Source: Enterobacteriaceae endosymbiont of Donacia provostii
Lineage (GTDB): Bacteria; Pseudomonadota; Gammaproteobacteria; Enterobacterales; Enterobacteriaceae
Direction of reading: 5' to 3'
Assembly (NCBI RefSeq): GCF_012570145.1
Contig: NZ_CP046206.1
Coordinates: forward strand, 212,324 to 244,323
DNA: 32,000 nt
The stretch's first letter is position 1. Every line of letters starts with the position of its first letter. A program made the translations under genes and the position numbers. The notes under the pieces were generated by a model. That model was given only the letters and a program-made list of their open reading frames with translations, was not told where the DNA came from and made no database searches. This document shows positions 4,022 through 30,321 of this stretch, piece after piece.

Positions 4022-5446
4022 ATGAATAATATAATAAAAATTCAAGTAGTTGTAATTGGAGGAGGGCCTGCAGGATATGCTGCAGCTTTTCGTTGTAGTG
4101 ATTTAGGATTAAAAACTATAATAGTAGAAAATTATAATAATTTAGGTGGAGTTTGTTTAAATGTAGGTTGTATTCCATCAAAAACATTACTTAACATTGC
4201 GAAAATTATTAAAGAGTATAAAAATTTTTCAAAAAAGGGTATATTTAACAATAATATTAAAATAAATTTTGATAGTATTATAAATTGGAAACAAAATGTA
4301 ATTAATAAATTAACTAATGGATTACATTTTTTAGCTAAAAAACGTAATGTTAAAATTATAAATGATATGGGTTTTTTAGAAACAAATAATTGTTTAAATT
4401 TAACTAATAGTAATGTAAAAATATTATTTGATAATGCTATAATAGCTACAGGATCTATACCAATAAGTTTACCTTTTCTGCCTTATGAAGATAAAAGAAT
4501 TTGGAATTCTACAGATGCATTAAATTTAAAAAAAATTCCTAAAAAAATGATGATTATAGGAAGTGGTATTATTGGTTTAGAAATGGCAACAATTTATCAA
4601 ACTTTTGGATCTAAAATAGATATAATAGATATTTCAAATAATTTATTACCTGAAGTAGATAATGATATTGTAAATATTTATCAAAAAAATATAAAAAACA
4701 AATTTAATTTTATATTAGGAACTGAAATAATATCAGTAGATAATAGTAAAGATTTATTACAAGTACATATGACTAGTGATAATCATAAATCCATTTACTC
4801 AAAACAATATGATGTAATTCTTGTTGCAATTGGTAGAAAACCTAATTCTATTTTTATAAATAAAAAATTTAATAAATTATTAATTAATAATCATGGTTTT
4901 ATTCAAACTGATAGTCAAATGAGAACTAATATTTCTAACATATATGCTGTAGGAGATGTTACTGGATATCCTATGTTAGCTCATAAAGGTATCCATGAAG
5001 GACATTTAGCTGCAGAAGTTATTTCAGGGAAAAAACATTATTTTGTTCCTAAAGTTATTCCATCTATTGCATATACGCATCCAGAAATAGCTTGGATAGG
5101 TATAACAGAAAAAAATGCAATAAAAAATAATTTAAATTATCAAACCTCTGTATTTTCTTGGAATGCATTAGGTAGAGCAATATCTTCTAATGAAGAAAAT
5201 GGTTTAACAAAATTAATTGTAGATAAAGATTCGAATAGAATTATAGGAGGAAGTATTATTGGATATAATGCTGGAGAATTATTAGGAGAAATAAGTTTAG
5301 CAATTGAAATGGGATGTGATATAGAAGATATTTCATTAACTATGCATGCACACCCTACTTTTTATGAATCTATTGGTATAGCAGCAGAAATATATACTGG
5401 TACAGCAACAGATATTATAAATATAAAAAATTTATCTGATATTTAA
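4022..5446 (+). CDS. lpdA: Dihydrolipoyl dehydrogenase (E3)
   Basis: FAD-binding fold GGGPAGYAAAFR. Redox-active disulfide GGVCLNVGCIPSK. C-terminal HAHPT...E motif. Collinear with E. coli Lpd over its full length. Confidence 0.96.
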   Translation: MNNIIKIQVVVIGGGPAGYAAAFRCSDLGLKTIIVENYNNLGGVCLNVGCIPSKTLLNIAKIIKEYKNFSKKGIFNNNIKINFDSIINWKQNVINKLTNGLHFLAKKRNVKIINDMGFLETNNCLNLTNSNVKILFDNAIIATGSIPISLPFLPYEDKRIWNSTDALNLKKIPKKMMIIGSGIIGLEMATIYQTFGSKIDIIDISNNLLPEVDNDIVNIYQKNIKNKFNFILGTEIISVDNSKDLLQVHMTSDNHKSIYSKQYDVILVAIGRKPNSIFINKKFNKLLINNHGFIQTDSQMRTNISNIYAVGDVTGYPMLAHKGIHEGHLAAEVISGKKHYFVPKVIPSIAYTHPEIAWIGITEKNAIKNNLNYQTSVFSWNALGRAISSNEENGLTKLIVDKDSNRIIGGSIIGYNAGELLGEISLAIEMGCDIEDISLTMHAHPTFYESIGIAAEIYTGTATDIINIKNLSDI

Positions 5447-5540
5447 AATTAGATATTTATTAATAAATGATTAATATCAAATATTACTAAATAATATATA
5501 TATATAATATATAAATAAACTTAATAATTATAAATATTAT

Positions 5541-6830
5541 ATGTATAATTTTAAAAAAAAAGAATCTATTTTAGATCAAATAAAAGTACCATCTTTTAAT
5601 CAAAAGAAATATTTTGTTAAAGAATATATTAAATCTTATCATAAAAAAAAAGATGATATTTCATATGCTATAAATAATACTATTAATGATTGTTATAATA
5701 ATGGTGGTGGAATTGTTGTTATTCCAAATGGAGAATTTTATACTGGACCAATTACTTTAAAAAGTAATGTAAATTTATATTTACAACATAATACTATATT
5801 AAAATTTTATACTGATCCTTATAAATATTATAATGTGTTTACAAGATGGGAGGGTACAGAATGTATTAATTATACATCATTAATATATGCTTATAATCAA
5901 AAAAATATTGCTATAACTGGTACAGGAACATTAGATGGACAAGCTAATTTTAATAATTGGTGGTCATGGAAAAATGATATTAATGGTAATCATTTACAAA
6001 ATAATGATGTAAAAAAACTTAAAGATATGAATAAAAATAATATTCCTATCAAAAATAGAGTTTTTGGTATTGATCATTTTCTTAGACCAAATTTTATTCA
6101 ATTATATTTATGTAAAAATATTTTTATTTCAGATATTAATATTATTAATTCTCCTATGTGGGAAATACATCCAGTTTTAAGTCAAAATATTATTATTCAA
6201 AATATTAAAATAAATAGTTTAGGACCAAATAATGATGGATGTAATCCAGAATCATGTAATAATGTTTTAATTCAAAACAGTGTTTTTTATACTGGAGATG
6301 ATTGTATTGCAATAAAATCAGGAACAAATAATGATGGAAGAAAAATTAATATTCCTTCTAAAAATATTATTATTAAAAAATGTAATATGTATAATGGTCA
6401 TGGAGCTATTACACTAGGTAGTGAATGTTCAGGAGGTATAAAAAATATTTTTATAGAAGATTGCATTATTGATGGTAAATTACAATCTTTTTTTAAAATT
6501 AAAAATAATGCAATAAGAGGAGGTAAAATAAATAATATTTATATTAACAATATAAATATTGCATTTATTCAAAAATTTTTTTTAAATATCGATTATTTAT
6601 ATGATGAAGGAAATAAAGGTAATTTTATACCTATTGCAGATAATATTTTTATATCTAATATAAATGTAGAAAACTGTTTACAAGTATTTAATATAAACTC
6701 CATAGAAAAATCTATTGTAAATAATATTTTTTTAAAAAATTGCCTTTTTAAGGGACTAAAAAATCCCGAAAAAATATTAATTTATAATAATTATAATATT
6801 AATATTATTAATACAAAATTTATTTCTTAA
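5541..6830 (+). CDS. Glycoside hydrolase family 28 (polygalacturonase-like pectinase), right-handed parallel beta-helix
   Basis: GH28 signature motifs occur in canonical order and spacing: NNDG (Asp codon 6234-6236), GDD in TGDDCIAIKSG (Asp codons 6297-6302), GHG in NGHGAITLGSE (His codon 6399-6401), and KIK (6495-6503) where RIK is usual. The N-terminal GGGIVVIPNGEFYTGPITLKSNVNLYL block is typical of bacterial GH28 and pectate-lyase-fold proteins. Hydrophobic coil repeats recur periodically (IIIQNIKI, VLIQNSVF, IIIKKCNM, IFIEDCII, IYINNINI, IFISNINV). Confidence 0.85.
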   Translation: MYNFKKKESILDQIKVPSFNQKKYFVKEYIKSYHKKKDDISYAINNTINDCYNNGGGIVVIPNGEFYTGPITLKSNVNLYLQHNTILKFYTDPYKYYNVFTRWEGTECINYTSLIYAYNQKNIAITGTGTLDGQANFNNWWSWKNDINGNHLQNNDVKKLKDMNKNNIPIKNRVFGIDHFLRPNFIQLYLCKNIFISDINIINSPMWEIHPVLSQNIIIQNIKINSLGPNNDGCNPESCNNVLIQNSVFYTGDDCIAIKSGTNNDGRKINIPSKNIIIKKCNMYNGHGAITLGSECSGGIKNIFIEDCIIDGKLQSFFKIKNNAIRGGKINNIYINNINIAFIQKFFLNIDYLYDEGNKGNFIPIADNIFISNINVENCLQVFNINSIEKSIVNNIFLKNCLFKGLKNPEKILIYNNYNINIINTKFIS

Positions 6831-6836
6831 ATTATA

Positions 6837-7997
6837 TTAAACTAAAAAAGTATTTTTTAAAATTTCATAGTATATTTTATATAAATTATATAAGTCATTA
6901 ATATAAACATGTTCATTAATTTTATGAATAGTAGAATTATTTAAGCCTAATTCAATAATTTGTGCTCCTGTTTTTATAATAAATCTACCATCTGAAGTAC
7001 CTCCATCATTAATTAATGATGGATTAATATTATTAATTGAATAAATACTTTTTTTTACTATTTGAATTAAATTTTTTTTTTTTTTATAATATTTATTACT
7101 TAAATAGGGTTTAGCAGATAAATCCCATTTTATATTAAAATTTAAAATATATTTTTTAATAATATTCTTTAATTCTTGTAAAATGTTCTGATAATTTATT
7201 TCATTATTAAAACGAAAATTAATATAAATATTAATATCACCTGGAATAATATTATTATTTTTTATATTAGAGCTAATTCTTGTAATTTGCATACTAGTAG
7301 CAGGTAATAAAGTATTTTCCTTACTCCATTTTTTTAGAATTAATTCATTTAATAACGGAATTACTATATGAATAGGATTTTTAGCTAAATTATGATATGC
7401 TACATGTCCTTGTATACCTATAATTTTTAGTTTAACATTTAATGAACCTCTCCTCCCATTTTTAATATTATCTCCAATAATTTTATTACTTGTAGGTTCT
7501 CCTATAATACAAAAATCTACTTTTTCTTTTTTTTCTAATAAATTTTGTATAATTTTTATAGTTCCATCTTTAGCACTACCTTCTTCGTCTGAAGTAATCA
7601 TAAAAGCTATACAGCCATAATAATGAGGATAATAAGAAATAAATTTTTTAGCCGCAAATATCATTGCAGCTAAAGAACCTTTCATATCACAAACTCCTCT
7701 ACCATATAAAATCTTATCTTTTATAACTGGTTTAAACGGATTAAATTTCCATTGTTTTATATTTCCTGGAGGAACAACATCAGTATGACCTGCAAAAACT
7801 AAAGTGTCATATATATTTTTATATTTAATATTGTGAATTGCCCAAAAATTTTTGGTATTATTAACATTCATTATATTAATATCAAATCTTAATTTTTGAA
7901 GTATTTTAATTATAATATCTTGACATTTAGCATCAAAAGGACTTATAGAAGGACATTGAACAAGTTTTTTAGTTAAATGAATTATTTTGTGTAACAT
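6837..7997 (-). CDS. dapE: Succinyl-diaminopimelate desuccinylase
   Basis: Metal-ligand motifs AGHTDVVP, GRGVCDMKG, TSDEEGSA, IIGEPTS and TIHKINEHV are present, and it is collinear with E. coli DapE. The listed ORF runs to 8072, but the Met at 7997 (MLHKIIHLTKKLVQCPSISP) aligns with the E. coli N-terminus and removes the overlap with lon. Confidence 0.9.
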   Translation of the reverse strand: MLHKIIHLTKKLVQCPSISPFDAKCQDIIIKILQKLRFDINIMNVNNTKNFWAIHNIKYKNIYDTLVFAGHTDVVPPGNIKQWKFNPFKPVIKDKILYGRGVCDMKGSLAAMIFAAKKFISYYPHYYGCIAFMITSDEEGSAKDGTIKIIQNLLEKKEKVDFCIIGEPTSNKIIGDNIKNGRRGSLNVKLKIIGIQGHVAYHNLAKNPIHIVIPLLNELILKKWSKENTLLPATSMQITRISSNIKNNNIIPGDINIYINFRFNNEINYQNILQELKNIIKKYILNFNIKWDLSAKPYLSNKYYKKKKNLIQIVKKSIYSINNINPSLINDGGTSDGRFIIKTGAQIIELGLNNSTIHKINEHVYINDLYNLYKIYYEILKNTFLV

Positions 7998-8028
7998 AAT
8001 ATTATACTTTTTAAAATAATTTTCATTA

Positions 8029-10362
8029 TTAAAACGGTTTATTTTGTAAAGATAAAGATAATACTTCTTCAATATTTTTGACAGTTAAAATTTTTAAATC
8101 TGTTATAATATTTTTAGGTATATCTTCTAAATTTCTTTTATTTTGTTCAGGAATAAGTACAATATTAATTCCCCCTCTATGTGCTGCTAATAATTTTTCT
8201 TTTAATCCTCCAATACCTAATATTTGTCCTCTTAAAGTAATTTCTCCAGTCATAGCAACATTAGCTTTTACAGGATTACTAGTTAAACTAGAAACCAAGG
8301 CAGTACAAATAGAAATACCTGCACTAGGGCCATCTTTTGGAGTTGCACCTTCTAAAGCATGAACATGAATATCTATATTTTTATAAAATTCTTTATCAAT
8401 ATTTAATTTTTTAGTTCTTGCTTTTACTACAGTTAAAGCTGTTTGTATAGATTCTTGCATAACTTCACCTAATGATCCTGTATATGTTAATTTTCCTTTA
8501 CCAGGTATACATACAGTTTCAATAGTTAATAATTCTCCACCTACTTCTGTCCATGCTAACCCAGTTACCTGCCCAATTAAATTTTCATTTTCTGCTTTAC
8601 CATAATCAAATTTTTGTACACCTAAATAATTTTTTAAATTAAAATTATCTATTATAATAGATTTAATATTTTTTTCTATTAAGATAGTTTTTACTGTTTT
8701 TCTACATAATGTAGATAATTTTCTTTCTAAACCTCGTACACCTGATTCTCTAGTATAATATCTAATTATATCGATAATTGTTTTATCATTAATAACTAAT
8801 TCTTTTTCTTTTAAAGCATTACGCTTTATTTGTTTAGGTAATAAATATTTTTTTGCTATACGTAATTTTTCATCTTCTGTATAACCAGAAATTTTAATAA
8901 CTTCCATTCTATCTAATAGAGGTAATGGTATATTTACTAGAGAATTTGAGGTTGCAACAAACATTACACTAGATAAATCATAATCTATTTCAAGATAATG
9001 ATCATTAAATGCAATATTTTGTTCTGGATCTAAAACTTCTAATAATGCTGATGCAGGATCACCTCTCATGTCATATGATATTTTATCTATTTCATCTAAT
9101 AATAATAATGGATTTTTTACACCTGTTTTAACAATTTTTTGTATTATTTTACCTGGCATAGAACCAATATATGTTCTACGATGACCTCTAATTTCACCTT
9201 CATCTCTTATACCTCCTAATGCTATTTTAATAAATTTTCTACCTGTAGCTCTAGCTATAGATTTTCCTAATGAAGTCTTTCCTACTCCTGGGGGTCCAAC
9301 TAAACATAAAATAGGTCCTCTAATTTTATTAGATCTATTTTGGACAGCTAAATATCCTAAAATATGTTCTTTAACAGATTCTAAACCATAATGATCTTGA
9401 TCTAATATTTTTTTTGCTTTACATAAATCTTTTTTTAATCTACTTTTTATATTCCATGGTATTTGTATCATCCATTCTATATATCCTCTAACTACTGTTG
9501 CTTCAGCTGATATAGGAGACATCATTTTTAATTTTCTTAATTCAAAAAATATTTTTTCTTTTATCTCTTTTGGTATTCTTGCTAATTCTATTTTTTTTTT
9601 TAAAATTTCATTTTCATCAAGGTTATTATCAATTTCTCCTAATTCTTTTTGAATAGCTTTCATTTGTTCATTTAAATAATATTCCCTTTGACTTTTTTCC
9701 ATTTGTTTTTTTACTCTATTACGAATTTTTTTTTCTACTTGTAATAAATCAATTTCAGATTCCATTATAGCCATTAGATATTCTAATCTTTTATTAACAT
9801 CAGACATTTCTAATATTAATTGTTTATTAGGTAATTTTAAAGGCATATGAGCAGCAATAGTATCAGCTAATTTAGCAGCATCTTCAATATTATTTAAAGA
9901 ACTTAAAACTTCTGGAGGAATTTTTTTATTTAATTTTATATATCCTTCAAATTGATTGATTGCTGTTCTAACTAATACTTCTTGTTCTTTTATATCTAAA
10001 ATTGGAGATGATAAGTATTTTACTTGTGCTGTAAAATAATTACCATCATCCGATAATGTTATTATTTTTACTCTATTTAATCCTTCTACTAAAATTTTGA
10101 CAGTACCATCTGGTAATTTTAACATTTGTAAAATAGATGTCATTGTACCTACATTAAATAAATCATTAATATTAGGATCATCATTAGATGCTTCTTTTTG
10201 TGCAACTAACATAATTTTTTTATCATTATTCATAGCTGCTTCTAAACAACGAATAGATTTTTCTCTTCCAATAAATAAAGGTATTACCATATGAGGATAT
10301 ACAACTACATCACGTAATGGTAAAACTGGAATTATGATATGTTCTGAATTCTTAGAATTCAT
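8029..10362 (-). CDS. lon: ATP-dependent Lon protease
   Basis: Very high similarity to E. coli Lon from the first residues (IPVLPLRDVVVYPHMVIPLF). Walker A GPPGVGKTS, Walker B LLLLDEIDK, catalytic Ser in PKDGPSAG and Lys in GGLKEKLLAAHRGG. Confidence 0.98.
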   Translation of the reverse strand: MNSKNSEHIIIPVLPLRDVVVYPHMVIPLFIGREKSIRCLEAAMNNDKKIMLVAQKEASNDDPNINDLFNVGTMTSILQMLKLPDGTVKILVEGLNRVKIITLSDDGNYFTAQVKYLSSPILDIKEQEVLVRTAINQFEGYIKLNKKIPPEVLSSLNNIEDAAKLADTIAAHMPLKLPNKQLILEMSDVNKRLEYLMAIMESEIDLLQVEKKIRNRVKKQMEKSQREYYLNEQMKAIQKELGEIDNNLDENEILKKKIELARIPKEIKEKIFFELRKLKMMSPISAEATVVRGYIEWMIQIPWNIKSRLKKDLCKAKKILDQDHYGLESVKEHILGYLAVQNRSNKIRGPILCLVGPPGVGKTSLGKSIARATGRKFIKIALGGIRDEGEIRGHRRTYIGSMPGKIIQKIVKTGVKNPLLLLDEIDKISYDMRGDPASALLEVLDPEQNIAFNDHYLEIDYDLSSVMFVATSNSLVNIPLPLLDRMEVIKISGYTEDEKLRIAKKYLLPKQIKRNALKEKELVINDKTIIDIIRYYTRESGVRGLERKLSTLCRKTVKTILIEKNIKSIIIDNFNLKNYLGVQKFDYGKAENENLIGQVTGLAWTEVGGELLTIETVCIPGKGKLTYTGSLGEVMQESIQTALTVVKARTKKLNIDKEFYKNIDIHVHALEGATPKDGPSAGISICTALVSSLTSNPVKANVAMTGEITLRGQILGIGGLKEKLLAAHRGGINIVLIPEQNKRNLEDIPKNIITDLKILTVKNIEEVLSLSLQNKPF

Positions 10363-23002: not shown

Positions 23003-25351
23003 TTATAATTTTTGAGCAAAATTAAATTGAAAAAATTGAATTTTATCCATTTTATATTTTTTTAATGGATATGCAAAAGAAATAATTATATCACCAAATG
23101 AAGTACGAAATTGAAAAGATAAACCAATAGAAGTTCTTATTTGTGATAAAATATTAAATTTAGAAATTTTATATAATTTAGATAAATAATTATTTTTTAA
23201 TGAAGTATCAATTACATTACCTATATCTAAAAATATAGAAGATCTGATTTGTTTAATAAAAATATTATCTATTAATGATAGAGGAATAATTAATTCATTA
23301 TTTATATTAAATAAAACATTACCACCTACTGAATAATCAGATAAACAAATAGTTTTATTATTACAATTATATTCTTTTGAAGAATAATATATACCCTTAG
23401 GTCCAATACTATTGGTTTGAAAACCTCTAATAGAATTAACCCCACCTAAATAAAAATTCTTATAAAAAGGATATTTCCCCCCTAAAAATCCATTTCCATA
23501 ACTAAAATTACTTCTAAATAAAAAAATAATTAAATTATTACATTGTAGAGTATTCTGTAATTTAGATAAATCAAATAACGGTATATATTGTGTATAATTA
23601 AAATTAATTTTATAGTAACGATTTTTACTATACCAAGGAATAGAAAAATAAGTATCTAAAGAACTTAAGATACCATTTAATGGTAAATTAAAACTATTTA
23701 AGTTTTTAAAAATTAATGTATGATGAATTACAAATTCATCTAATACATAATATTTATATGATTTATTATATATTTGATAACCTATATTTCGAAGATAATT
23801 CCACAACAATATTTGTGGTTCAATATTACTAATTTTATTTTTTATAAATCCAATTTTATGAATTATAAAAATATTTTTATTAATAGGTAATTTAAATATT
23901 CCTAAAAAACCTTTGTTTTTATTTATATAATTATAAAAAAAACTATCATCTTCATTTATAGAATTTAAAAATATTTTTATACCAGAATTAATTTTTTTAA
24001 AAAAAGCATGATTTTTCATAATAAAAATTTCTAAATAATAATGATAAAAATCTTTATGAAGATCAATATTTACATCATATCCAGTACCTATAAAATTATT
24101 TTGTTTTAAAATAGTATTAAATCCTAATGAACCATCTTTTATTATTCCTAATCCTGTTCTTAAAAAACCATCATTTTTTTCATCAACTTTAAATACAACA
24201 TTTAACATATTTTTTAAATCATGATTTTTATATAAAAGAATTTCAATATGGTTAAAATAACCTAAAGATAACAATCTTTTTTTTGTTTTTTTAATTAATG
24301 TAATATTTATTGGATCACCTTCTAATTGTAATAATTCATTTCTTAAAAGAAAATCTTTAGTAAAATTATTTCCTAAAAAATTTATTTTTTTCACATAATA
24401 TTTTTTATTAGTATTAATATTAATTAATATATTAACTATATTTTTTCTTTTATTTATAATTTGTTTTATTATAATTTTAGAATTTAAAAATCCATTTTCT
24501 TTTAAAAATTTTGTTATTTTATATTGTAGTTTTGAATTTATATTAGTTTTATAAACTGTTCCAGGAAAAACATTAGTAATTTTTTTTATAGATTTTATTA
24601 AATATTTGTTTTTATTTAATTTAATTAATATTTTTTTATAAAAAAATGGTTTATTTTCTTGAATTTTAATTGTTAAATAATTTTTTTTTTCATGATATGA
24701 AATATTTGTTTTAACGTCTTTGATCTGAAAATTTAAATATCCTTGATTTATATAAAAATTATTTAATTTATTTAATAAATGATAAATATCATTAATATGA
24801 TATTTTTTTCTTTTTGTAAAGAAAAATAAAAATTTATTATTAATATTTAAATAATTTAATAAAAAATTAGTTTTATAAAATTTATTACCTATAATATTAA
24901 TTATATCTATATTAATAAAATTATTTTTTTTGAATAAAATTTTAATATTTACTACTTTTTTAGATAAAGATTGTTTTTTTTTTATATGAGAAATAAATAT
25001 ATAATTTTTTATAAACATTAATTTTATATTTTGTTTAAATAATATTAATAAATTTTTATTTTGAATAATATTAAAAATATTATTAATACTGTTTAAATAT
25101 ATAATTTGAAATATATTAAATATTTTTTTTGAAGAAAAATTATTTTTTCTTATATAAGAATATATTTTATCATTTTTGAAGTTAGTTTTATTTAAATTTA
25201 AAAAAATTATTTGATGCATATAATTATTTTTTTTATATAAAATATTTGCATAACACAAAATTTTTATATTAAAAATAAATAAAAAAATTAATAAAAATTT
25301 ATAAAAATGAAAAACTTTTATTAATTTTTTTTTAAAACTTATTAATATCAT
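23003..25351 (-). CDS. bamA: Outer membrane protein assembly factor BamA
   Basis: 782 aa. The C-terminal barrel has FYKNFYLGGVNSIRGFQTNSIGPKG and VGGN, and ends KIQFFQFNFAQKL (E. coli: AEQFQFNIGKTW). The POTRA region is strongly diverged. It sits between the rseP remnant and skp. Confidence 0.92.
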   Translation of the reverse strand: MILISFKKKLIKVFHFYKFLLIFLFIFNIKILCYANILYKKNNYMHQIIFLNLNKTNFKNDKIYSYIRKNNFSSKKIFNIFQIIYLNSINNIFNIIQNKNLLILFKQNIKLMFIKNYIFISHIKKKQSLSKKVVNIKILFKKNNFINIDIINIIGNKFYKTNFLLNYLNINNKFLFFFTKRKKYHINDIYHLLNKLNNFYINQGYLNFQIKDVKTNISYHEKKNYLTIKIQENKPFFYKKILIKLNKNKYLIKSIKKITNVFPGTVYKTNINSKLQYKITKFLKENGFLNSKIIIKQIINKRKNIVNILININTNKKYYVKKINFLGNNFTKDFLLRNELLQLEGDPINITLIKKTKKRLLSLGYFNHIEILLYKNHDLKNMLNVVFKVDEKNDGFLRTGLGIIKDGSLGFNTILKQNNFIGTGYDVNIDLHKDFYHYYLEIFIMKNHAFFKKINSGIKIFLNSINEDDSFFYNYINKNKGFLGIFKLPINKNIFIIHKIGFIKNKISNIEPQILLWNYLRNIGYQIYNKSYKYYVLDEFVIHHTLIFKNLNSFNLPLNGILSSLDTYFSIPWYSKNRYYKINFNYTQYIPLFDLSKLQNTLQCNNLIIFLFRSNFSYGNGFLGGKYPFYKNFYLGGVNSIRGFQTNSIGPKGIYYSSKEYNCNNKTICLSDYSVGGNVLFNINNELIIPLSLIDNIFIKQIRSSIFLDIGNVIDTSLKNNYLSKLYKISKFNILSQIRTSIGLSFQFRTSFGDIIISFAYPLKKYKMDKIQFFQFNFAQKL

Positions 25352-26585
25352 TTATAAATGTAATCCCCATAATAATTATTACTATAATTATACTAAAAAA
25401 ATATACTAATTGTTTAGTTTTATTAGATATTTTTTTATTAGTTATTTTTTCAAAAATTAAAAATAATAATTGTCTACCATCTAATATTAGCAAAGGAAAT
25501 AAATTAATTATACTTAAATTAAGACTTATTATTGCTAAAATATAAAATAATATGTAATATTATCTCGAAATAATATACTAGTAAATATGACCTATATAAA
25601 TAGGTCCATTAAATTTAGAAACATTTATTTTATTTAAGAATAAAGATATAAAAGAATAAATAATTAATTTTATTATTTTATAAGTTTAATATAATGATTT
25701 ATTTAATGCTTGAAAAAAATTAATTTTATATTGAAAATATAATTTATTCTTATTTTTATTTATTGCAGGTAAAAAAACTAAAAAACCAATTTTATCTTAA
25801 AGATAAGATATTAATCTTAATATTATTTTTTTCTTTGAATTTTTAAATGAATAATTTTATTAGGATTCTTATAAATAATTTTTTGAAATTGATACCAATT
25901 AATAATTTTTTTCCTTCTATATTTAAAATTTTATCTCTAATAATTAAATTAGATTTAGCTACAGGAGATTTAGGAATTATATAACTAATAATAGGATAAA
26001 TTTTTAATTCTTGAGGTAATATTCCTAATATTGTTATTAAATTTTAAATTTATATATTTTTTTTTATAAATATTTTTTATTAATAATATATTTAAATTAT
26101 TTAAATATTTAACTTTAATACTATTAATTTTTTAAATTTTAATATTAGGTTCTAAATGAATTCTACTTTTAATAGAAGTATAATTAATTTCATTAATAAT
26201 ATTAGTTTTAATAGGTAATCCTTTTAAAAAAAATGTAAAATAAATTAATTTTGCAAAAATAATATTTGATAAAAGTCCAGCAGATAAAATACATATTTTT
26301 TTTAAAAAACTTAATTAGTTAAAAGTTAATAATTTAAATTTATTAATATTATGAATATTATTTTTTATTGATTCAGAAATTTTAACATATTTCACCTAAA
26401 GATGATAATCTAATAATATAACGAGTACCATATTTATCATGATACTGAAATATTTTTTTACTAAAACATAATGAAAAACATTCTATATAAGTTTTAAAAA
26501 AACGTGCAACATAAAAATGTCCAAATTCATGAACAATAATAAGCGTAATCATAGTTATTAAAAATATTATTGTATTATATATCAA
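25332..26585 (-). pseudogene. rseP: rseP (site-2 zinc metalloprotease of the sigma-E pathway), nearly full-length but with multiple nonsense and frameshift lesions
   Basis: - N-terminal fragment (26382-26585): carries HEFGHFYVAR and starts at TTG.
- Frameshift near 26390, after which the sequence reads YVKISES...
- In-frame stops at 26315-26317, 26132-26134, 25797-25799, 25686-25688, 25578-25580 and 25560-25562.
- Further frameshifts at about 26040-26070 and about 25826.
- PDZ-like fragment: LGILPQELKIYPIISYIIPKSPVAKSNLIIRDKILNIEGKKI.
- C-terminal fragment (25332-25559): NLFPLLILDGRQLLFLIFEKI...FINDINKF, matching E. coli [21 protein letters not shown]...FNDFSRL. Confidence 0.9.
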
Positions 26586-29613: not shown

Positions 29614-30321
29614 CTAATGAGTTTTTAGTTTTTTATTATTAGATTGTAATTTATTATTTAATATGGTTTGAGTAACATAATATAAATATAATTTTATAGC
29701 ACGGATAGCATCATCATTAGCAGGAATAACAAAATTAATTCCTTCTGGATTAGAATTAGTATCTACTACTGCAAAAATAGGGATATTTAATTTTTTAGCT
29801 TCACTTATAGCAATTTTTTCATGATTTGCATCAATAACAAATATTGCATCAGGTAATCCTCCCATATTTTTAATACCACCTAAACTTTTTTCTAATTTTA
29901 ATAATTTTCTATTTCTTATTAAAGCTTCTTTTTTAATTAATTGATTAAATGTTCCATCTTTACTTTGTAATTCTAATTCTTTTAATTTTTTTATAGATTT
30001 TTTCACAGTTTTCCAATTAGTTAACATACCTCCTAACCAACGATGATTAATAAAAAATTGATGACAATTAATTGCAGTTTCTTTTATAAGATTAGATGCT
30101 GCTTTTTTTGTTCCAATAAATAAAATTTTACCTTTACGAGAAGTAATTTTTTTTAATTCTTTTAGTGCAATATTAAACATTTGAAAAGTTTTATCTAAAT
30201 TAATAATATGTATTTTATTTTTATGGTTAAAAATAAATTTTTTCATTTTTGGATTCCAATAACGTGTTTGGTGACCAAAATGAGTTCCTACTTTAAACAT
30301 TTTCTTGATAGATATAGACAT
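29614..30321 (-). CDS. rpsB: 30S ribosomal protein S2
   Basis: [34 protein letters not shown] and [28 protein letters not shown] match E. coli S2. The listed ORF starts at 30381, but the ATG at 30321 (MSISIKKMF...) aligns with the E. coli N-terminus and has GAGGA about 8 nt upstream. Confidence 0.95.

Follow-up and report, generated by a model that had tools for sequence, protein, structure and literature searches.

The chromosomal polygalacturonase of the Donacia provostii symbiont: an ancient gene under selection with a predicted exo mode of action

The locus considered here raises the question why a bacterium with a strongly reduced genome keeps an intact gene for a pectin-degrading enzyme among its housekeeping genes, and how the product of such a gene may reach its substrate. 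It lies in a stretch of 32,000 nt (the window; positions 212,324 to 244,323 of contig NZ_CP046206.1) from the chromosome of the symbiont of the reed beetle Donacia provostii, which comprises 453,917 bp (PMC7289800), and consists of an open reading frame (ORF) for a glycoside hydrolase family 28 (GH28) protein at positions 5541-6830. An entry at NCBI, 'glycoside hydrolase family 28 protein [Enterobacteriaceae endosymbiont of Donacia provostii]', matches the encoded protein with 100% identity, and the gene had already been published by Reis et al. 2020 (PMC7289800) as the chromosome-encoded polygalacturonase (cPG) of 'Ca. Macropleicola' from the host Donacia provostii; gene, locus and clade are the same, with no difference in kind. 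The original prediction, made from the letters of the sequence, had regarded the symbiont as probably a member or relative of the Stammera/Macropleicola class, and this identity confirms it. Gene and role have both been in the literature since 2020 (Nat Commun 11:2964, PMC7289800), and the additions reported here are modest, incremental and testable rather than surprising.

It has been shown that the chromosomal polygalacturonase (PG) and a plasmid-encoded one (pPG) are both present in the symbionts of five Donacia species, two Macroplea species and Neohaemonia, that both genes occupy fixed positions in perfectly syntenic symbiont genomes, and that both were lost whenever the hosts switched to pectin-poor Poales (PMC7289800). 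Galacturonate oligomers are digested better by gut extracts of species with both PGs, di- and tri-galacturonate are digested efficiently only by beetles whose symbionts carry both genes, and symbionts are kept in male beetles only when they encode pectinases (PMC7289800). Recently, cPG of the M. mutica symbiont was found to be transcribed, at a slightly higher level in adults (2025 paper, PMC12508126). These published accounts of cPG (PMC7289800, PMC12508126) mention neither an exo or endo type nor the catalytic motifs, the exchange R319K, the missing signal peptide, a binding site in front of the gene or a Plateumaris relic; the terms 'exo', 'catalytic', 'secret' and 'signal peptide' are absent from the text of Reis et al. 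(PMC7289800).

Taken together, we consider it quite probable that the published cPG is an ancient gene under selection, the product of which is an exo-type enzyme that carries no leader, is released by lysis and tolerates the exchange R319K, and the expression of which starts from an FNR-type promoter. According to this model, purifying selection would act on cPG because the adult beetle eats pectin-rich leaves of Nymphaeales. The enzyme would be an inverting hydrolase taking galacturonic acid (GalA) units from the non-reducing end of oligogalacturonides, which the secreted plasmid endo-PG would make for it, and such a division of labour matches the published efficient digestion of di- and tri-galacturonate only in the presence of both genes. 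The leaderless cPG would meet its substrate upon leakage or lysis of symbiont cells in the lumen of the Malpighian tubules or the gut, and its transcription would proceed from an activator-dependent promoter with an FNR-type box.

Family membership and mode of action

The membership in GH28, for which a search with the Pfam profile PF00295 (Glyco_hydro_28) had been suggested together with the original prediction, is well supported, as this profile covers residues 182-378 with 83.8 bits (gathering cut-off 22.9, E = 1.6e-23). The AlphaFold2 model, for which 116 homologs were used as input, shows a right-handed parallel beta-helix with a long run of short strands (pLDDT 95.6, pTM 0.94), in agreement with the coil periodicity noticed before, and its top Foldseek matches are all GH28 beta-helices. 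The four motifs NND, GDD, GHG and KIK are all in frame and exactly at the positions originally given for them (Table 1); their conservation was counted in an alignment of 127 homologs, which comprises the 8 symbiont cPGs and 119 others. We take D232, equivalent to D180 of the Aspergillus niger polygalacturonase II (PGII), to belong to the pair of carboxylates by which the nucleophilic water is activated, while D253 and D254 presumably represent the general acid and the second base by homology to PGII D201/D202. Judged from the alignment and the residue list for the family (PMC8952511, PMC10059216), the GH28 catalytic set is complete, consisting of D232, D253, D254, H287 and K321. Hence, the claim of an intact 429-aa GH28 ORF stands, with a real reading frame, an ATG start, the Pfam match and all catalytic residues.

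The original prediction had left the choice between an exo and an endo mode undecided; within GH28, several lines of evidence point to the exo-acting enzymes. In a phmmer search against the Protein Data Bank, the exo-polygalacturonase of Thermotoga maritima (3JUR; PelB/TM0437) was the best match and aligned continuously over query residues 6-408 (E = 6.8e-96, 325 bits), followed by the galacturonidase of B. thetaiotaomicron (5OLP, E = 3.5e-69, 237 bits), whereas the endo-PG of Pectobacterium (1BHE) was found with E = 3e-16 and an alignment that breaks from query residue 146 to 183 (chain residues 140 to 151). The TM-scores obtained with Foldseek amount to 0.92 for 3JUR (rmsd 2.3-2.4 Å, about 36% identity), 0.88 for 5OLP, 0.69 for 1BHE, 0.65-0.73 for the Yersinia exo-PG and approximately 0.5 for fungal endo-PGs. 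Furthermore, the phmmer alignments and the extent of the Pfam core (residues 182-378) reveal an N-terminal region of about 180 aa, including the segment 147-182, that is shared with the exo-types only and not with the endo-PG 1BHE. These parts would be the sequence counterparts of the N-terminal addition and the inserted loops by which exo-types close the substrate cleft at one end. The top NCBIfam model is the BT4155 alpha-D-galacturonidase NF049892 with 298.3 bits, which does not reach the equivalog cut-off of 800. Collectively, sequence and modelled fold place cPG in the exo-acting, 3JUR-like subgroup of GH28 (predicted EC 3.2.1.67).

The comparison with characterized enzymes is instructive in this regard. 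The T. maritima enzyme has the same catalytic segments and the same N-terminal region as cPG and is likewise without an N-terminal leader, but it has R-L-K where the D. provostii cPG has K-I-K; it is the tetrameric enzyme of a hyperthermophile that catabolises galacturonate. BT4155 (5OLP, NF049892) is also an exo-acting GH28 enzyme and the second-best match, however, cPG falls outside the BT4155 equivalog (298 vs 800 bits), and BT4155 acts in the periplasm on oligosaccharides derived from rhamnogalacturonan I (RG-I). The pPG, the Stammera capleta PG and Pectobacterium PehA (1BHE) share family and catalytic segments with cPG but belong to a different, endo-type GH28 subgroup, and pPG is 54-58% identical to the plasmid PGs of Stammera capleta, whereas cPG is not. 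Stammera and the symbionts of Donaciinae are alike in that host-beneficial pectin digestion is found in reduced symbionts of leaf beetles. Recombinant pPG has been shown to produce oligomers and, acting alone, to leave dimers and trimers (PMC7289800). The exo-type homology and fold thus offer a molecular reason why cPG would act on oligomers, as the published work had inferred.

Age, selection and erosion of the gene

All eight cPG orthologs were recovered by homolog search, and cPG occupies the lpdA-dapE site in the D. provostii symbiont as in the seven sister symbionts. A scan of a genome collection with DapE returned nothing but an unrelated archaeal metagenome-assembled genome, and the sister loci were obtained by way of DapE homologs. 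The gene order aceE-aceF-lpdA-GH28-dapE-lon-clpX-clpP is the same in the symbionts of D. proxima, M. appendiculata and N. nigricornis (loci L002-L004), while in E. coli K-12 a long distance separates lpdA from dapE. The GC content of the GH28 gene is 19.4%, and its GC content at third codon positions (GC3) of 5.4% lies among those of five neighbours (4.9-8.0%), as expected from the codon usage that had been described as equally A+T-rich. In a neighbour-joining tree, the eight cPGs are monophyletic with 100 of 100 bootstraps, the Donacia and Haemoniini subclades reach 100/100 each, and the cPG clade mirrors the host tree; its sister group (85/100) consists of leader-bearing homologs, followed by a Serratia-like group. 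An old rather than recent acquisition had been proposed, and the ameliorated codon usage, the synteny in four genomes, the host-mirroring monophyly and the Plateumaris relic described below all speak for it. A recent horizontal transfer was considered and rejected in view of GC3, synteny, monophyly and the same relic. The nearest non-symbiont homolog (P0006, L013:374-1848) is situated on a 283-kb metagenome contig and not within a locus for pectin utilisation; the neighbours are metH, a gene with a KwaA-family (Kiwa anti-phage) domain and a cluster for a TonB receptor and a siderophore ABC transporter. This context shows a Gram-negative source and nothing further on the origin.

The ratio of nonsynonymous to synonymous substitutions (dN/dS, method of Nei and Gojobori, D. 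provostii vs D. proxima symbiont) is 0.19 for GH28, compared with 0.13 for lon, 0.25 for clpX, 0.29 for dapE, 0.35 for lpdA and 0.53 for aceF; as synonymous sites are near saturation in deeper comparisons, these values should be read only in relation to each other. The lpdA-dapE spacer comprises 91-313 nt in the seven examined symbionts that lack cPG, in place of 1,390 nt here, hence loss of the GH28 gene is fast and clean as soon as it has become dispensable. The strong selection that had been postulated is thus supported by the low dN/dS of 0.19 together with the clean deletion wherever the gene was lost. Among the genomes without the gene is the D. tomentosa symbiont, which has no chromosomal GH28 in its 313-nt spacer of 8.6% GC (L005:5165-5477). 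One published sentence mentions 'a PG in the symbiont chromosome' of D. tomentosa, yet the discussion of the same paper states that the chromosomal copy was lost (PMC7289800); the sequence agrees with the loss. Overall, cPG is an ancient resident of a genome of about 0.45 Mb that is kept by purifying selection.

The lpdA-dapE spacers of Plateumaris symbionts contain a relic of the gene, a 'RWEGIDCINYTPLIY' block in GH28 orientation. The 91-nt spacer of P. braccata (L009:5183-5273), read in GH28 sense, translates to LFKWEVIKCINYSPLISYLYK, where the intact protein reads LTRWEGIDCINYTPLI-YAYK. In the protein-level comparison this match scores 30.8 bits, and neither 300 nor 150 shuffles in two runs gave one as good (0/300 and 0/150). 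The P. rustica spacer (L011:3790-3881) contains the same relic in frameshifted form, and the nucleotide alignment confirms the homology. In P. sericea (L010:3750-3847) the relic was remodelled into a perfect palindrome of 35 bp, and no significant protein-level relic was obtained from this spacer (28 of 150 shuffles as good) or from the 313-nt spacer of D. tomentosa (35 of 150), while a blastn-short search of the lpdA-dapE spacers against GH28 genes returned A+T-rich noise alone. In contrast to this search, the comparison at the protein level with its shuffled controls was informative. Judged from these sequences, the relic is direct evidence that the GH28 gene predates the Plateumaris split, an origin that was previously derived by parsimony and without mention of a remnant (PMC7289800). 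The relic folds as a hairpin (z = -3.2; the P. sericea palindrome z = -14), which is not seen in the intact genes (z of about 0 to -1.5), so that it may persist as a terminator-like element between convergent genes. Separately from the relic, lon of the P. sericea symbiont (L010:5-2443) was called as two genes of 574 aa and 205 aa, whereas it is a single gene of 777-781 aa in the other symbionts examined, which may be due to a frameshift, to the onset of pseudogene formation or to an error of the assembly.

A detail that had been singled out for checking is the fourth motif, which indeed reads KIK in place of RIK and has the codon AAA at its first position. Position 319 is Lys in all five symbionts of Nymphaeales-feeding Donacia, and Arg in the three Haemoniini symbionts as well as in 119 of 119 other homologs. 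The Haemoniini orthologs have the codon AGA, such that a single transition from AGA to AAA accounts for the exchange, which probably reached fixation before the five symbionts of Nymphaeales-feeding Donacia diverged. We take R319 and K321 to be the positions R256 and K258 of A. niger PGII. The Arg of the RIK motif has been described as a substrate ligand at subsites -1/+1 in the GH28 literature (PMC8952511, PMC10059216). It is a conserved ligand of the substrate carboxylate and not a criterion of the family, and its replacement in cPG conserves the charge. Two more near-invariant Arg were replaced (R268K and R336N/K), while 89 of 98 near-invariant columns of the family are kept in the D. provostii cPG. 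Only five Arg are left in this protein (1.2%, compared with a median of 5.3%), all of them at family-invariant columns (R102, R173, R182, R267 and R326), and Lys is enriched to 9.6% from 5.3% in free-living homologs. The Arg/Lys composition of cPG shows clearly how selection filters the effects of A+T pressure. Given that Arg is found in all 119 other homologs, R319K likely goes back to A+T pressure at a site that tolerates the exchange, and it hence likely represents drift where a positive charge is enough and not a loss of function. In this regard it should be noted that guts of D. crassipes and D. cincticornis digest oligomers well (PMC7289800), and the cPGs of both symbionts carry Lys at position 319.

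Expression, export and gene neighbourhood

The region between lpdA and the GH28 gene contains an FNR-type palindrome followed by a predicted -10 hexamer (Table 1). The first base of the hexamer follows the centre of the box at a distance of 29.5 nt, corresponding to a -41.5 geometry if the transcription start site (TSS) is placed 7 nt past the hexamer, and in class II FNR and CRP promoters of E. coli the site is centred at -41.5. The succession of ATGAT-N4-ATCAAAT, 22 nt and TATAAT is conserved in the symbionts of D. provostii, D. proxima, M. appendiculata and N. nigricornis, the spacers of which are otherwise unalignable. A single copy of the composite pattern, i.e. box plus -10 hexamer, is present in the window and in each of the three sister loci, compared with none in 100 shuffles of the window and none in nine other loci, and the invariant runs in the lpdA-GH28 spacer amount to 7, 7 and 5 columns compared with at most 4 in three control spacers. 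The bare FNR box is not significant by itself (2 matches vs 0.93 expected). A second exact TGAT-N4-ATCAA is situated inside rpsB (29822-29834), has no TATAAT at class II spacing and most likely is a chance match. No -35 element was detected upstream of GH28, and a generic scan for sigma-70 promoters and terminators, which is uninformative in DNA of 20% GC, gave fewer promoter-like matches than shuffles and no terminators. The region thus resembles class II FNR promoters of E. coli in its palindrome (9/10), the spacing to the hexamer, which would give -41.5 with the predicted TSS, and the missing -35 element but differs in the half-site ATGAT. Based on these sequence features, cPG is probably expressed from an activator-dependent promoter with an FNR-type box about 41.5 nt upstream of the predicted start.

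Such a promoter fits the published co-occurrence of fnr with pectinases. The published ortholog table lists fnr for precisely those 11 genomes that also carry pectinases, and FNR has been proposed as pectinase regulator from this gene co-occurrence alone, without a binding site (PMC12508126). FNR is one of four or five transcription factors left in the 0.45-Mb genome, and the signal sensed at the putative FNR-type site may be something other than oxygen. On the M. mutica plasmid (L012:244-285), the sequence TTGATTTTAGACAA, which is FNR-like in 8 of 10 positions, is followed after 22 nt by TATTAT upstream of pPG. On this one sequence the site is no better than chance, given 5 two-mismatch matches where 4.0 would be expected within 2 kb.

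Regarding export, the eight cPGs all begin directly with the mature domain and are devoid of a hydrophobic stretch at the N-terminus (best hydrophobicity over 12 residues at most 1.4). In contrast, at least 102 of the 119 other homologs have a hydrophobic, Tat-like or lipoprotein N-terminus, many of them with a Tat-like S-R-R-x-L-L or lipoboxes. The native plasmid PG of M. mutica (L012:320-1591) starts with the Sec signal peptide MKILFQQTNKILFYICIFFLFSQKIFA, followed by EDQRIV, and has the canonical motifs NTD/GDD/GHG/RIK. The published synthetic pPG constructs start exactly after the leader, while the cPG constructs lack the initiator Met alone. The published ortholog table lists secY, secA, secE and the signal peptidases I and II, whereas name searches of this table for twin-arginine, exuT, uxaC, hexuronate, uronate and 2-dehydro-3-deoxy (KDG) returned no entries; it contains only a few, unrelated transporters. 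For Stammera, it has been modelled that symbiont membranes degenerate, enzymes leak and are then squeezed into the gut. Because cPG is leaderless and the table contains Sec but no Tat genes and none for uptake or catabolism of uronate, its release most likely would occur by leakage or lysis of symbiont cells in the lumen of the Malpighian tubules or the gut.

Table 1. Coordinates of the features discussed; positions refer to the window unless a sister locus is named
Feature	Position	Strand	Remarks
lpdA, last gene of aceE-aceF-lpdA	4022..5446	+	NCBIfam TIGR01350, 458 bits; upstream neighbour also in L002-L004
FNR-type palindrome ATGATTAATATCAA	5467..5480	+	9/10 vs TTGAT-N4-ATCAA, right half-site perfect; centre 5473.5
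Predicted -10 hexamer TATAAT	5503..5508	+	exactly 22 nt past the box; inferred TSS near 5515
GH28 coding sequence (cPG)	5541..6830	+	ATG start, 429 aa + stop; Pfam PF00295; beta-helix in the AlphaFold2 model
Residues 147-182, exo-type N-terminal region	5979..6086	+	36 aa here vs about 10 aa in endo-PG 1BHE
N230-N231-D232 ('NTD/NND' segment)	6228..6236	+	Asp codon 6234-6236; D232 invariant in 127/127 aligned homologs
G252-D253-D254 ('GDD' segment)	6294..6302	+	two Asp at 6297-6302; invariant in 127/127
G286-H287-G288 ('GHG' segment)	6396..6404	+	His at 6399-6401; H287 invariant
K319-I320-K321 (fourth segment, usually R-I/F-K)	6495..6503	+	K321 invariant; Arg319 replaced by Lys
dapE, convergent downstream neighbour	6837..7997	-	NCBIfam NF009557, 468 bits; stop 6 nt from GH28 stop
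Box-TATAAT in sister loci	L002:5925-5966; L003:5924-5965; L004:5927-5968		upstream of GH28

The lpdA and dapE flanks and the statement that GH28 is the sole gene in the window outside housekeeping and biosynthetic functions were verified for the neighbours and the remaining genes, which include aceE, aceF, lon, clpX, clpP, suhB, nfuA, metA, proS, tilS, dnaE and fabZ as well as skp, bamA, uppS, frr, pyrH, tsf, rpsB, map and rpoD. A 411-aa dapE ORF (6837-8072, minus strand, TTG start, overlapping the end of lon) turned out to be an artefact of ORF calling; the annotated protein has 386 aa, and this form, starting at 7997, is 100% identical to the NCBI protein. The reported decay of rseP was also seen, because the gene exists only in fragments at about 25332-26585 on the minus strand, among them a 67-aa piece with the zinc motif HEFGH (26382-26585) and a separate 53-aa piece that overlaps the start of bamA (25332-25493). 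The region of these remnants has the lowest GC content in the window (about 11.5%), and there is no cdsA ORF in the window, a gene that sits between uppS and rseP in E. coli.

Competing explanations and biological meaning

Both modes of action exist within GH28 with common catalytic motifs, and the published OrthoMCL table names cluster418 'Polygalacturonase (EC 3.2.1.15)', i.e. with the endo EC number (PMC7289800), hence cPG could be regarded as a classical secreted endo-polygalacturonase that duplicates the function of pPG. This is very improbable in view of the much better match to 3JUR (E = 6.8e-96, TM 0.92) than to 1BHE (E = 3e-16, TM 0.69) and the N-terminal region of about 180 aa with the 147-182 insert that is common to exo-types only; moreover, cPG is without a signal peptide, unlike pPG, and recombinant pPG alone leaves the dimers and trimers that guts with both enzymes digest. 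More serious is the idea of an exo-galacturonidase with another natural substrate, for example the terminal GalA of RG-I backbone oligosaccharides as in the case of BT4155, which is the top NCBIfam model (298 bits) and with 5OLP also provides the second-best fold match (TM 0.88). It is nevertheless improbable, because the NCBIfam score stays far under the 800-bit cut-off, the homogalacturonan exo-PG of T. maritima is closer (325 vs 237 bits, TM 0.92 vs 0.88), and it is specifically in the breakdown of pure dimers and trimers of GalA that the gut extracts of species with cPG differ.

The missing signal peptide in 8 of 8 orthologs, shared with 3JUR, which has no N-terminal extension either (chain residue 10 vs query residue 6), would also be compatible with an intracellular cPG that acts on imported oligogalacturonides and feeds the symbiont, as proposed for the leaderless Thermotoga enzyme. 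We regard this as quite improbable, since the published table is without exuT, uxaC, hexuronate, uronate and KDG-pathway genes and contains few, unrelated transporters, the gene was lost exactly when the host diet turned pectin-poor, and male beetles keep symbionts only if these encode pectinases (PMC7289800). The diet-linked loss and the pattern of male retention argue for a benefit to the host. Hardly credible is the view of cPG as a decaying or catalytically crippled relic, which is without the substrate-binding Arg and the signal peptide and has remained an intact ORF by chance. It could draw on R319K at a position that is Arg in 119 of 119 other homologs, on the changes at 9-13 of 98 near-invariant positions and on the fact that recombinant activity was never shown (PMC7289800). 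However, the dN/dS of 0.19 is like that of essential neighbours, every catalytic residue and 89 of 98 conserved columns are kept, the Lys variant is maintained in five species, the promoter elements are conserved, and under relaxed selection the gene is deleted down to a spacer of 91-313 nt. In addition, the M. mutica ortholog is transcribed, more so in adults (PMC12508126), and Lys-bearing species have the oligomer-digesting phenotype (PMC7289800).

The preferred reading of cPG as a selected, leaderless exo-type enzyme released by lysis and expressed from an FNR-type promoter also has to face several points that weigh against it. Symbiont cPGs are changed at 9-13 of 98 near-invariant columns, whereas free-living homologs have at most 4 such changes (median 0), hence a lowered efficiency of cPG is possible from the changed positions. 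The match to the NCBIfam exo-galacturonidase is far below the equivalog cut-off (298 vs 800 bits), so that the fine specificity may be for homogalacturonan or for RG-I-derived oligomers. Active recombinant cPG was never obtained (PMC7289800), and its activity, the exo mode and the effect of K319 are inferred. The FNR box has A for T at one discriminating position (half-site ATGAT), the TSS is a predicted one, and control by FNR is putative. Finally, the absence of Tat and uptake genes refers to name searches of the published table, and the in-vivo evidence comes from bead-beaten gut homogenates, which would free a cytoplasmic enzyme and cannot locate its action (PMC7289800).

It is tentatively conceivable, though we would rather expect it to need revision, that cPG is a cytoplasmic, leaderless exo-galacturonidase that reaches the gut solely by leakage or lysis and is switched by FNR through the conserved class II site. 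If true, an eroded symbiont would keep a digestive gene that benefits its host under a dedicated regulator, the host would obtain the enzyme at the cost of sacrificed cells, and FNR may regulate the plasmid endo-PG as well. In any case, cPG is an already published textbook example of a tiny symbiont genome that keeps a plant-cell-wall enzyme for its host. The conserved FNR-type promoter provides a concrete DNA target for the published idea of an FNR-pectinase connection, and the apparent combination of a secreted endo-enzyme with a non-secreted exo-enzyme sharpens the question of how enzymes exit from symbionts without secretion systems. The clade-specific exchange of Arg by Lys in a substrate-binding motif represents a natural experiment that may show how much erosion by A+T pressure an active site withstands before its function is lost. 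Moreover, the Plateumaris relic gives physical evidence, previously a matter of parsimony only, that the ancestor of all reed-beetle symbionts carried the gene.

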